Assembly (NCBI GenBank): GCA_964016885.1
Contig: OZ024742.1
Coordinates: forward strand, 319,982,001-320,046,000
DNA: 64,000 nucleotides
Reading direction: 5' to 3'
From: Eledone cirrhosa
Taxonomy: Eukaryota
Shown: positions 14,272-33,493 of the stretch, one piece after another
How the letters are laid out: every line of letters begins with the position of its first letter
Numbering within the stretch: position 1 is the first letter of the stretch
Notes under the pieces: generated by a model
What the model saw: the letters and a program-made list of their open reading frames with translations, nothing else
What the model was told of the DNA's origin: nothing
The model's database searches: none
Made by a program: the position numbers and the translations under genes

Positions 14272-14856
14272 CCACTGATCGCCGAGTCCGTTTGCCAGAG
14301 GACTGTGAGCGCCTGAGCACATTCGATGTGCCAGTCGCCCATTTTCCTCGGTCTTTGCTTGACTCAGGACTGCAGCTTGGTCAGCGAGACGAGTCGTGGG
14401 AATGCTCGCCTCACGAACCGGACCCACACCGGTTGTCTGGTGAGGAATACGTGGAGGTGTCGCAGCCTGAGCGCGTGTTTGCGCATCGTCAGCCGCGACT
14501 TCTCCAGCCCTCCGTTTGAAGGGTGTTGGCAGCAGGTGGATCTTCTCACCAAAGGAGCCCGTTTCTTCCAAAAGAATTGGAAGAGCGCGCACTATTTTGG
14601 TGAGCGTTTTGGCTGGACAAGGCACAACGGTCAAGTGGTAGTAGATGACGGACGCTATAAAAGTGTTCGCCACCTCCGTTCGACGTTTCAAGGATAGTTT
14701 GCACTCGGCCCACTTCTGGGTGAGCGCAAACACCTTGGCCGTCACCTCGTTCCAGTTCTTCTCCACCTGGAGGTCAGGACCAAACCAGACCCCGAGCAGC
14801 TTTACCGGTCCTTCCGTCCAGCGTCCGACGACGTCATCGGAAGGCATCGGTTTTCC
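14272..14856 (-). mobile_element. Tx1-clade LINE copy A: internal ORF2 fragment (post-RT region), truncated at both ends; same family as copy D
   Basis: Translates GRWTEGPVKLLGVWFGPDLQVEKNWNEVTAKVFALTQKWAECKLSLK, nearly identical to ORF2 of D; frameshifted. Confidence 0.92.
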
Positions 14857-14868
14857 ACACACATATAT

Positions 14869-14888
14869 AGATAGATAGATAGATAGAT
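14869..14888. repeat. (AGAT)n tract between copies A and B
   Basis: agatagatagatagatagat. Confidence 0.95.
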
Positions 14889-14890
14889 AT

Positions 14891-15948
14891 GTTTCTTTTA
14901 TTTGCCACTAGGGCATCAAAAGTGGGACAAGTACAAAGGGGGGAGTTTACACAAAAAGGCGTCCTCAATAAGGAGGAGGCAATAACAAAATATAAAAATA
15001 AAATAAGATATAACAAAAAATAAAATTTTTAACAAAATCCTCAATAGAGAGGAGGCGCCTTGGGGGGTCGCACACACCCCCGAAAAAAGTGTGCAACCCT
15101 TTTCCTCAGGAGCACAGAGAGGGGGTGCTCCCTCGTTCCTTCCTCTTTTCCACCTACAGGCTTATGTAGAGAGAAGGCCCATTCACACGGGCCATTCTCG
15201 CCACTTTCACCCACCTTTCATAAAAACGACTGGGGTGCAGCACCTCTCTCTCCATCCTGATCCTTCTTCCGAAATGATATCGGAAGAAACGGACCAGTTG
15301 TTGGCCAGAGAGAAAGGTGCCTGACCTCAGTCCTTTCAGACGCGTCCACCATACAACCTCTTTCGCCATGGCTATTACGCACAGAAACACCGCCTCTGCT
15401 TCATCTTTGAAGGGGGGAGGCGGCTTGATCATTACAATAGACTCGGTGGTCAACCGGATCGGTCCCACCCTTGACAGCAGTTGTTCGACATAGCCCCACA
15501 GATCGGCTACGCCCGAGCAGTGTACCAATGCGTGTGCAACGGTTTCCTCGTCGCACACGCATCTGGGACAGATCTTTTTGGCGGGGTCCCTACCCGGGCG
15601 CCCGTGTCTGTAGAGCCTTTCTCGAACGGGTAAAGCCCCTCGGTAGCACTGCCAGGCCAGGGACTTCTGGAAGTTGTCCATAGGTCCCGGGCTGAATGTC
15701 CTACCGAACAGGCCGGCCAGTTCGTCCTCCTCCATGTCTAGGGCTTCTCCGAGGGCGTCGTCGCACCTGCTGCGTACCAGCCCTCTATAGAATGTTGCGG
15801 TGGAGTCTCCACTGATAACCGGATCCGCCTGCCAGAGGGCGGTGAGCGCCTGGGCACACTCAGTGTGCCAGGCGCCCAGTTTTCTCGGTCTTTGCTTGAC
15901 CCAGGATTGCAGCTCGGTGAGTGAGACGAGTCTGGGAAAGGTTCGTCT
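14891..15948 (-). mobile_element. Tx1-clade LINE copy B: 5'-truncated, ORF2 C-terminus plus 3' UTR
   Basis: ORF 15154-15735 with zf-RVT-type CPRCVCDEETVAHALVHC, ends ARVNGPSLYISL*; 3' UTR ends AATAAAAGAAAC then (TATC)n; 5' break abuts (TATC)n. Confidence 0.95.
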
Positions 15949-30900: not shown

Positions 30901-31367
30901 CCTGCATAGTCCCAACGCGCATCTAGGATTCCATTCCAGTCCCCCACTAAAAGCAGGGAACGCGACGTTCCTAGAAAAGTCTCCAGACGCTGGAAGAAGT
31001 CGGCTCTTTCCGCCCCGAAGGGAGCATAAAGACCGACCAGTCTGAAAGCCCCGCCTTCACCGCCTCCGACGTCCAGCACCAGTAATCGACCCCCCGGGTC
31101 CGAGTGAACAATCTGTACGTCGAGAGTCAGACGTTTATCCAGCAGTACGGCAACTCCCCCCCCCCCCCCGCCTCCGGGTTGACAGAGAGATGCGTGCATC
31201 TCAAAGTCATCGAAGGCGGGCGCCAGCTGTCTCACGCTGCTGATCCGACTCTCGCAAACAACCATCACATCTATACTTTGTGACCTGAGGTCACTTAGAA
31301 GCTTTGCTTGCTTCCAAGCTGAGCCCAGGCCACGCGCGTTCAAACAGCCAACTCTCAATTGATCTAT
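27949..31367 (-). pseudogene. Copy E ORF2 (EN-RT-zf); start apparently ATG>ATA, stop at 30723-30725, frameshifting deletion at ~29150
   Basis: ATA GAT CAA TTG AGA GTT GGC aligns with ATG GCC AAT ATA AGA GTT GGA of D; RQGCPLS and AYADD present; VVGRWT segment lost at a GACGG repeat. Confidence 0.93.
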
Positions 31368-33191
31368 TTTGGTGTTGAAAGTGAAGAAAGAAAAGCACTT
31401 ACCTCTCCGGGTTGCGTAATTTCCATGGCATCAGGTGTGTTGGGTGGAGGGATGTTTTGTGGTGGTGTGGGGGTACACGTGTGTGGTGGGGTTGGGGTAT
31501 TTGGAGTTGTGTCAGGGAGAGGGGCGGTTATGGGGAAATCTTTCAAGGGGACGCGATTCAACGGTTTTAAACAGGGGGGGCTCACGTCCCGTCTAAATTG
31601 TTCTTTTAAGGAACGATAAAGCTCCAGAGGGACCTTTATCATTTTTAAATGGGTGAAGTTCTCTGTTGAGATAAAGTTTGGCCCTTCGGTCTGCACCATA
31701 GGGTTATTGTTTATTAATTTAACCAGTTTTTTGTTTTCTTTATTTATATATGTGTATTGCAACGTCTTTTTTTGTGATGCTGTCAATGTTTCGGAGAGGG
31801 GAGGCGCAGATTTATTTTTGTTTGTTGAGGGTGGGGTGTTTTTGATTGGAGTTGGTGTTTGTGTGTGGGTTATTTGTGGTGTGCTGGGTGTGTGTTTTCT
31901 TTTTTTTCTTTTAACTTGTCTGAAGGCTTCTCCTCCTTCTTCTTCAGAAGTTGGGGGAAACTCTTCAGCGCTAGGTGGGAGGGACGTGTTGTGTGGTTGT
32001 TTTTTTTTTGCGGGAGGGGTAGATTTGTTACTGTTTTTTTTATTGTTTGTTTGGAATGGGTTTTGTGGTGGTGGTGGTAATGTTTGTGTCGTGCTTGTGG
32101 TTGGTGATGGTGGTGTTTGTGTTGTGGTTGGTGGTGGTGATTTTTGTGTCGTGCTTGTGTTTGGTGCTGGTGGTGGTAATGTTTGTGTTGTGTTTGTGGT
32201 TGGTGGTGTCTGTATTTTGTTTGCTGTGTGTGGTATTAGTGTATTTTTGGAGGTGGGTGGTGTTGGTGTACTGTTTGTGGTGGGTGTGGGAAATAGTCCT
32301 TTTTGGGGGATACGTTTCGGGCAGTTAGCCTTAACGTGTCCCCTTTCCATGCATAAATAGCATGCTGGTCTTCTCCCCTCTACAATTATGTCTATTGGGG
32401 TAAGGTCATCCAGCCAGATGCGATCCGGGATTTGTGCTATTCTTTCGGGCCTCATTTGGACTAGTATGTCGAGGCCCATTCCCAGAAACGCATCTCCAGT
32501 TGCCTTCCCCATTGACAGCATTGTGTCTTCGCCCATATCAATGAAGCCAGCAATAGCCCACCAGAAGTCCATTGTGGGCAGCATTGTTTTTACTTTTACT
32601 CTCTGTGTTCTTCTACCCATGTAGGAGGGATAGAAGCTATATGTTGTCGATGAGAGTGGGCTTAGGGAAAGCTTCTCCGCCGTTTCCCTGTCTCTTGTTA
32701 GGACCGAAATGCTGCCATAGAGTCGGTCCTTTCGTATGAAGAGAATATTCTTCATATAGTCTTTTAGGACTAACTCTATTTCCATTTGGCTGGGCTGTGC
32801 TGGCTTTCTTGTCTGGTTCAGTATAGTTCTGTAGAGAACTGTGTTTTCTGCTCTGGCTTTCTTGAATTCTGGGGGGGGAGTTAATGGAAAACATTCCGTT
32901 CTCCCCCAAAACAATGTGTTTCTTTGCTTCGGCCAGTTTTTCTCTGGCGGCAGTTAGGTCAATTGGTGTGTATGTAATGGATTGTTTTGTTTTCTGGGCG
33001 AAAGTTGCCCTGTTGTTATTTGTATTATTTTCTGTTTGTTTGTTTTCTGTTTGTTCATTTTCCTTAACATTTGTTTTTTCCTTTTCTTTGTTTGTTTCAT
33101 TGTCTAATTTTGTTGTAATTATTTTTTGTTCTTCAGACTTGGGGGGCGTGGCAGAGCTAATGGCAGACATGTCTGCCATCTTTTCCGCCAT
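31364..33191 (-). pseudogene. Copy E ORF1, single frameshift in homopolymer at ~32871-32878 (could be a sequencing error)
   Basis: MAEKMADMS...ENGMFSINSP / PEFKKARAENTVLYRT...CYLCMERGHVKANC. Confidence 0.9.
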
Positions 33192-33394
33192 GCTGCCAAG
33201 AAAGAAATTTTTCGGCAAAAATAGATATTTATTTTACCCCCTAAAAAGGGGGTAAATGCAAAAATGTTTCCCTAAAAAACAGGGGTTAGTGTTCCAAATG
33301 TGTTGCACTGAAAAATTTATCCGGTACTTACAATAGTAAGGGTAAATCCCGATGGAATAGCGGAGCCGATGTGAAGCGTGTCTTACTCTATCAA

Positions 33395-33493
33395 GATAGA
33401 TAGATAGATAGATAGATAGATAGATAGATAGATAGATAGATAGATAGATAGATAGATAGATAGATAGATAGATAGATAGATAGATAGATAGAT
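33395..33493. repeat. (GATA)~25 tract at the 5' flank of copy E
   Basis: Perfect tetranucleotide run followed by unrelated sequence. Confidence 0.98.

Follow-up and report, generated by a model that had tools for sequence, protein, structure and literature searches.

The octopus Eledone cirrhosa carries, in a 64,000-nucleotide stretch of contig OZ024742.1 (positions 319,982,001 to 320,046,000 of the forward strand; hereafter the window), an array of five copies, all on the minus strand, of a single type of long interspersed nuclear element (LINE); blastn places them head to tail between positions 14272 and 33393. The copies belong to four families of L1/Tx1-type LINEs with an APE endonuclease, a reverse transcriptase (RT) and a zinc finger (APE-RT-zf), and on the element strand they are separated by (TATC)n. 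We consider it probable that these families insert at (TATC)n, in one orientation throughout the genome, likely through nicking of the GATA strand by their APE endonuclease. The observations available are the flanks and orientation of the copies, their duplications, their intact open reading frames (ORFs) and their copy numbers.

An array of LINE copies in one (GATA)n locus

Copy D (21795..27636, minus strand; 5,842 nt) is full length, has no poly(A) tail and is the only copy to keep both ORFs intact. Copies C (15988..21757, minus) and E (27718..33393, minus; 5,676 nt) are also full length, and in both of them ORF1 and ORF2 are broken. Copy B (14892..15948, minus) is 5'-truncated, retaining the last 264 codons of ORF2 and the 3' untranslated region, and is 99.8% identical to its closest relative among the fetched copies. 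Copy A (14272..14851, minus) is an internal ORF2 fragment corresponding to D 4369-4950, 93% identical to D, 5'-truncated and with its 3' part lost. Read on the plus strand, the intervening tracts are a perfect (GATA)5 between B and A (14870..14889), (GATA)7 with imperfect units between C and B (15950..15987, perfect at 15950-15977), (GATA)8 between D and C (21761..21792), and (GATA)17 together with a head variant of the D family, TCTCTATC on the element strand, between E and D (27637..27716, perfect units at 27649-27716). The outer 5' flank of E is (GATA)24-25 (33394..33493), followed by unrelated DNA; a first-pass annotation had given this tract 25 units, and we count 24 perfect units (33395-33490), or 25.0 by TRF.

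Both the tract and the blastn coordinates bear out that annotation in its description of five minus-strand copies separated by (GATA)n. It had also placed nine of the ten element ends within about 12 nt of GATA; there is indeed one end without GATA, but the 5' end of A lies further off, at 18 nt from the perfect tract. The end without GATA is the 3' end of A (14272), which abuts a (GGT)/(AGT) repeat via CAGTGG microhomology. Apart from the five tracts adjoining the array copies, the window has no (GATA)4+ tract. As had been claimed, the other microsatellites are free of the element: all blastn matches of the five copies within the window fall inside 14272-33393, and none was found at its 38 (AT)7+, 20 (AC)7+ and 12 (GT)7+ tracts or at its single (AGT)n and single (TTTC)n tracts. 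Pairwise identity among the copies is 77-85%, apart from the 93% of A and D, and between the ORF1 cores of C, D and E it is 45-49%. This divergence excludes a single tandem duplication as the origin of the array, in agreement with the earlier reading. The window alone could not exclude that the TATC units are a tail or a head of the element itself.

Junctions and duplications across the genome

Exact 3'-end patterns were counted across the 3.0-Gb assembly. D-type 3' ends were followed by two bases and TATCT in 5,230 of 5,846 cases, and B-type ends by TATCT in about 1,652 of 1,932 (the numerator pattern being two bases shorter), against a TATCT background of 0.17% of positions, measured on sample DNA drawn at even spacing and totalling 400 kb; a variable-gap count of 19,444, which counts twice, was used as a source of positions only. 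At the best 30 D and best 30 E loci, two of which are the window's own, the flank was TATCT in 59/60 and TATCC in 1/60. Among 81 distinct TATC-clade 3' ends, a count from which ATT and satellite junctions were left out, TATCTATC occurred within 30 nt in 59 and the opposite orientation, GATAGATA, in none. Predominantly non-GATA flanks or random orientation, which the first-pass annotation had named as the patterns that would speak against targeting, were thus not seen, and its proposal of several families with strand-specific GATA targeting agrees with these flanks and with the duplications described below, with the qualification that specificity is loose. Near-cognate (TA)n, (TC)n and (TGTC)n sites are used at times, and specificity for TATC is about 80-90%, not absolute. 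The share of flanks in one sequence type, 86-90% genome-wide, stands above the value of over 20% at which target preference has been recognized (PMC4494074).

TATC likewise precedes every full-length 5' end viewed (30/30 D and 30/30 E), and 15 of these D and 18 of these E ends come directly after another element. Because 27 of the 30 D copies have the same variant TCTCTATC at the 5' end, the TATC found there is likely in part a head carried by the element, and the argument for targeting therefore falls to truncated copies and duplications. Among 25 truncated D copies, 10 come after another element, all with TATC (L029 is counted here, and three pairs are tandem duplicates). The other 15 have no element in the upstream sequence seen, which at L001 covered 188 nt; nine of them start at at least two TATC units and in a further two TATCT opens a duplication, whereas the background, counted over a slightly narrower span, is 0.2%. 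Two E rows were uninformative for the truncation count, one with its 5' end outside the view and one a chimera. Two further structures were noted: at L179 an inverted 3' fragment follows (TATC)13 in a manner resembling twin priming, and at L011/L012 a truncated D copy carries a 45-nt internal piece at its 5' end, with three tandem repeats.

Target-site duplications were checked at 10 loci picked by hand. At L338 the duplication, 21 nt long, begins in a (TATC)4 tract and extends into unique DNA; others measure 21 nt (L356), 20 nt (L021), 18 nt (L123), 15 nt (L211), 12 nt (L030) and 11 nt (L020), L336 has a long duplication starting with TATCT, and a 41-nt match at L355 reflects a tandem neighbour. 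Every duplication starts with TAT, and at L123 and L356 extra TATC units stand between duplication and element, as expected of a head. Since the duplications begin at TAT(CT), TATC is target DNA and not only a tail.

The association extends well beyond the window. Of the first 18 (GATA)8+ loci on the assembly sequence C1, 11 abut a copy (three recognized by distant similarity or by eye); the other seven, with tracts of up to 29 units, have no element, so long GATA tracts also exist independently. A second array at C1:22.19-22.21 Mb holds four full-length copies of several families in about 23 kb, and a mixed array is therefore not special to the locus in the window. Contigs from sequencing runs of two other organisms cover the element (L021:968-1766 and L338), one with some pieces identical, which indicates that the TATC family is not confined to Eledone cirrhosa.

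Sister families and the choice of target

The TATC families share their 3' terminus with relatives that occupy other targets. In copy D this terminus (21796..21825, minus) consists of a hairpin with a 4-bp stem and a 5-nt loop, followed by AATAAA, and it is common to all sister families. Across 14 ends 94.6% of cells were paired, with two-sided changes at two pairs, values inflated by the relatedness of the ends. The shared 3' motif occurs 28,853 times in the genome. Among the first 100 such ends on C1, TATCT came next in 47, and 50 of the other 53 were examined: 27 belong to ATT-flanked families, 10 to a satellite family and 13 to the TATC clade, as copies in near-cognate DNA. Relative to D, ORF2 identity is about 86% in the satellite family and 63-70% (about 68%) in the ATT families. 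The satellite family is inserted at one fixed point of a 72-bp satellite unit, and full-length copies have the target repeat at the 5' end too (ATT, 4/4; satellite, 6/6 viewed). In the trees a single clade (SH-aLRT 100) unites the TATC families with the satellite family, and the ATT families are its sister; the nesting of the satellite family is weak (69-82). The endonuclease loop predicted to set specificity reads NRSG in the TATC and satellite families and NRIG in the ATT families.

Further details of these relatives were recorded. The ATT copies L242, L257, L260 and L268 on C1 have (ATT)n on both sides, and ATT families also form tandem arrays, with a spacing of about 5.9 kb. Satellite-family loci include L249, L250 and L280 (C1:4.22-4.26 Mb) as well as L241, L256, L275 and L278, with six 3' ends in a row; the satellite may be older than the element or may have been spread by it.

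Target-primed reverse transcription from a nick in the GATA strand best accounts for the strand, the phase and the duplications together. From these we infer a role of the endonuclease in specificity, a nick position, RNA ends and a function of the hairpin, as follows. The APE endonuclease would nick the GATA strand such that the 3' end of the new copy joins just before TATCT, and the 3'-OH of the GATA strand would prime copying of a poly(A)-less RNA that is probably recognised through its 3' hairpin. The target duplication would then result from another cut, at a distance of 11-21 nt. Full-length RNAs likely start a few units inside the upstream tract, where the end of the cDNA could anneal, and truncated cDNAs would join by short microhomology. 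Each insertion would leave TATC on both sides, so that any TATC family could insert again; this regeneration of the target may account for the same-strand mixed arrays. That the endonuclease sets specificity is suggested by analogy with SART1 and TRAS1, in which an endonuclease swap moved the target (PMC7265360).

Several points weigh against this account. The loop of the satellite family is nearly identical to that of the TATC families, which specificity set solely by the endonuclease explains poorly. Among the 15 outer truncated D copies, four lack both TATC and a duplication at the 5' end; the one full-length E copy tested (L343) shows only a 7-nt match; and of the first 100 3' ends on C1, 60 belong to the TATC clade, 13 of them in near-cognate sequence. 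No empty site was seen at L021 or L338 in contigs and reads, in which the junction repeats were skipped, so that the result is uninformative. Neither the hand-picked duplication loci nor the loci of the DNA search, which are the best-scoring copies, are a random sample.

A bolder version of the account, which we regard as doubtful, would have one young and intact LINE radiation switch target repeatedly in one genome, among (TATC)n, (ATT)n and the 72-bp satellite, guided partly by RNA through pairing of the site with target-derived sequence at the transcript ends, so that a family with an 86%-identical ORF2 could reach an entirely different repeat, and would make it a main shaper of long GATA tracts as well. 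A stronger role for pairing is also conceivable, though unlikely: a loosely specific endonuclease would cut TAT-rich DNA, pairing of target-derived sequence at the RNA ends with the nicked DNA would mainly set the target, and the acquisition of new flanks would change it. The missing poly(A) tail fits this, as do the head variant TCTCTATC at 27/30 D loci and the head that separates the duplication from the element at L123 and L356. The satellite family, with an ORF2 86% identical to that of D, yet has a fixed 5' junction in the 72-bp unit (6/6 viewed). Truncated copies without a head, however, are still found at TATC (11/15), the ATT families differ in their endonuclease loop, and exchange of the endonuclease between SART1 and TRAS1 swapped the target (PMC7265360). 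The off-target site L211 cuts both ways, in that it still begins with TAT but has a precise 15-nt duplication although only TAT matches the usual target. Given the element-borne heads, the absence of poly(A) and the near-identical satellite-family loop, we allow that pairing of RNA with DNA may determine the target together with the endonuclease.

If (TATC)n were instead only a 3' tail that the element itself produces through template slippage, insertion could otherwise be random and arrays would arise from landing beside old tails. TATC does follow every 3' end, as counted under this explanation, and 15/30 D and 18/30 E full-length 5' ends adjoin the 3' end of another element. TATC nevertheless also precedes truncation points where the DNA further out is not part of an element (9/15), duplications start with TATCT where the tract is present upstream (L338, L336), and the off-target copies L211, L247 and L255 have no TATC tail; the explanation is already largely refuted, and we consider it very improbable. 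Random insertion with regional persistence near GATA, or arrays formed by recombination or tandem duplication, is just as hard to credit, for although units that share one truncation point are duplicated in a few arrays (L011/L012, L018/L019, L028/L029), junctions are base-exact and strand-specific, neighbouring copies come from families 15-23% divergent, the pattern is already present in young copies that are 99% identical, and an RTE-like control, which addresses regional co-location only, shows no association. This control is a neighbouring, older family, of which 0/29 other loci hold (TATC)3; its fragment beside the array (33631-34269, plus strand) is 77-87% identical to its other copies, and a connection of the array with it was rejected on the same count.

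Relationships of the elements and neighbouring repeats

The predicted proteins of copy D place the elements in the L1 group of retrotransposons that lack long terminal repeats (non-LTR elements). ORF2 (22032..25469, minus; 1,145 aa) has an N-terminal APE endonuclease with motifs intact in sequence, an RT and a C-terminal zinc-binding motif, the layout of the L1 group (Pfam Exo_endo_phos, RVT_1 and zf-RVT), and its top PDB match is human L1 ORF2p (E 3e-52). Two ORFs, frequent 5' truncation and target-site duplications, all present here, are further traits of that group. A poly(A) tail is usual in the L1 group and was not seen here: the 3' end is AATAAA-GAAA plus 1-2 nt, joined directly to the target, a departure from the norm that has no bearing on the protein-based assignment. 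ORF1 (25503..27419, minus; 638 aa) comprises a predicted RNA-binding region and one CCHC knuckle. In the Tx1 clade, ORF1 carries RRM-like domains and a CCHC knuckle; here the knuckle is visible, and Atlas gave 0.93 to CCHC proteins and 0.90 to the ZCCHC3-RBD cluster. Searches of ORF1 returned no Pfam match, no match in a profile comparison with P0042 and, from a low-confidence single-sequence fold (pLDDT 43), no Foldseek match at E<=0.001.

Membership of the Tx1 clade, as first annotated, is likely, while the trees leave the placement among relatives weak. In trees without vertebrate L1 the families form a well-supported lineage of their own, with weak support (SH-aLRT 58-89) for its position among Keno-like and TX1-named sequences. 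The nearest proteins are unnamed, at 36-44% identity with one at 70%, and vertebrate TX1-named proteins reach 27-28%. A first metagenome scan found no relative, and a second found 34 distant loci, none from the 40%-identity group. Both ORFs are open in 13/17 full-length D and 10/29 full-length E copies fetched, and identity among copies is 98.0-99.9%; with copies so similar and many of them open in both frames, the families are young, and they may be currently active.

Insertion of APE-type L1-group LINEs into microsatellites is known from the Tx1 clade, with Kibi in (TC)n and Koshi in (TTC)n of fish and crocodilian families in (TTCC)n/(TTTC)n (PMC4494074, PMC3812793). The targets of Kibi and Koshi consist of pyrimidines only, whereas the present families use (TATC)n/TATCT and (TC)n only occasionally. 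Against retrieved vertebrate elements, among them Danio BAC82621.1 and one TX1-named protein but none identifiable as Kibi or Koshi, ORF2 identity is 24-29% and the present families are not nested among them, so that this comparison lends no support to close kinship. Of the relatives whose target is visible, the best-scoring is a metagenome element (L287; 30.8%, 390 bits over endonuclease and RT) whose poly(A) is joined to U2 small nuclear RNA (snRNA) and which we call Keno-like after the description of Keno in PMC4640811. It differs from the present families in both target and tail, and a sister relationship is unsupported (SH-aLRT 58). Tx1-like elements in the metagenomes stand beside U2 snRNA (L287:5815-5977, L285:4675-4885) and beside U1 snRNA (L289:9202-9356); at the U2 junction of L287 TATCT lies one to two bases past the poly(A), which may be coincidence.

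Other clades also contain repeat-targeting LINEs, namely SART1, TRAS1, Waldo (ACAY)n and Mino (AC)n of the R1 clade, and Dong (TAA)n (PMC7265360, PMC3812793). Like the present families, these enter short tandem repeats with a fixed strand and phase, and the present targeting would be convergent with theirs; the repeat occupied by the ATT sister families is also that of Dong, an unrelated element. SART1 depends on its poly(A) tail (PMC7265360), unlike the tailless copies described here. In Octopus vulgaris, 13 recently active L1-Tx1 families with 421 tabulated insertions have been reported (PMC13282606); the words 'target' and 'GATA' are absent from the available main text of that paper, and its unnamed families may include relatives of the present ones.

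The microsatellite targets of LINEs given in the available portions of PMC4494074, PMC3812793, PMC13282606, PMC3747384, PMC9115989, PMC10294476, PMC7265360 and PMC4640811 are (TC)n, (TTC)n, (TTCC)n/(TTTC)n, (ACAY)n, (AC)n, (TAA)n and (TG)n. In agreement with the first-pass annotation, no GATA- or TATC-specific LINE appears in the literature searched, though Repbase, Dfam or Fig. 3 and the supplements of PMC4494074 could list one. (TATC)n is a new target for the known strategy of microsatellite-targeting LINEs, and what is new beyond that is the set of target-switched sister families sharing a 3' hairpin. The mechanism of microsatellite targeting by LINEs has been described in review as not well understood (PMC3812793); intact, near-identical copies with 68-86% ORF2 identity and three targets make APE-LINE specificity directly testable. 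The group's 3' ends number about 28,900, and a copy adjoins 11 of the 18 long GATA tracts examined, so that GATA markers and repeat annotation in the Eledone cirrhosa genome are affected.

The remainder of the window holds other repeats. A short frame at 54677-55375 (minus), with a GIY-YIG-like motif seen by eye and no Pfam match at E 0.01, may be a Penelope-type remnant. Directly beyond copy A lie satellites with 41-bp and 51-bp units (1-9212 and 9252-13896), and long ORFs within 1-13896 were rejected as genes, being translations of the repeats. A further satellite, with a 33-bp unit, occupies 49321-51741.

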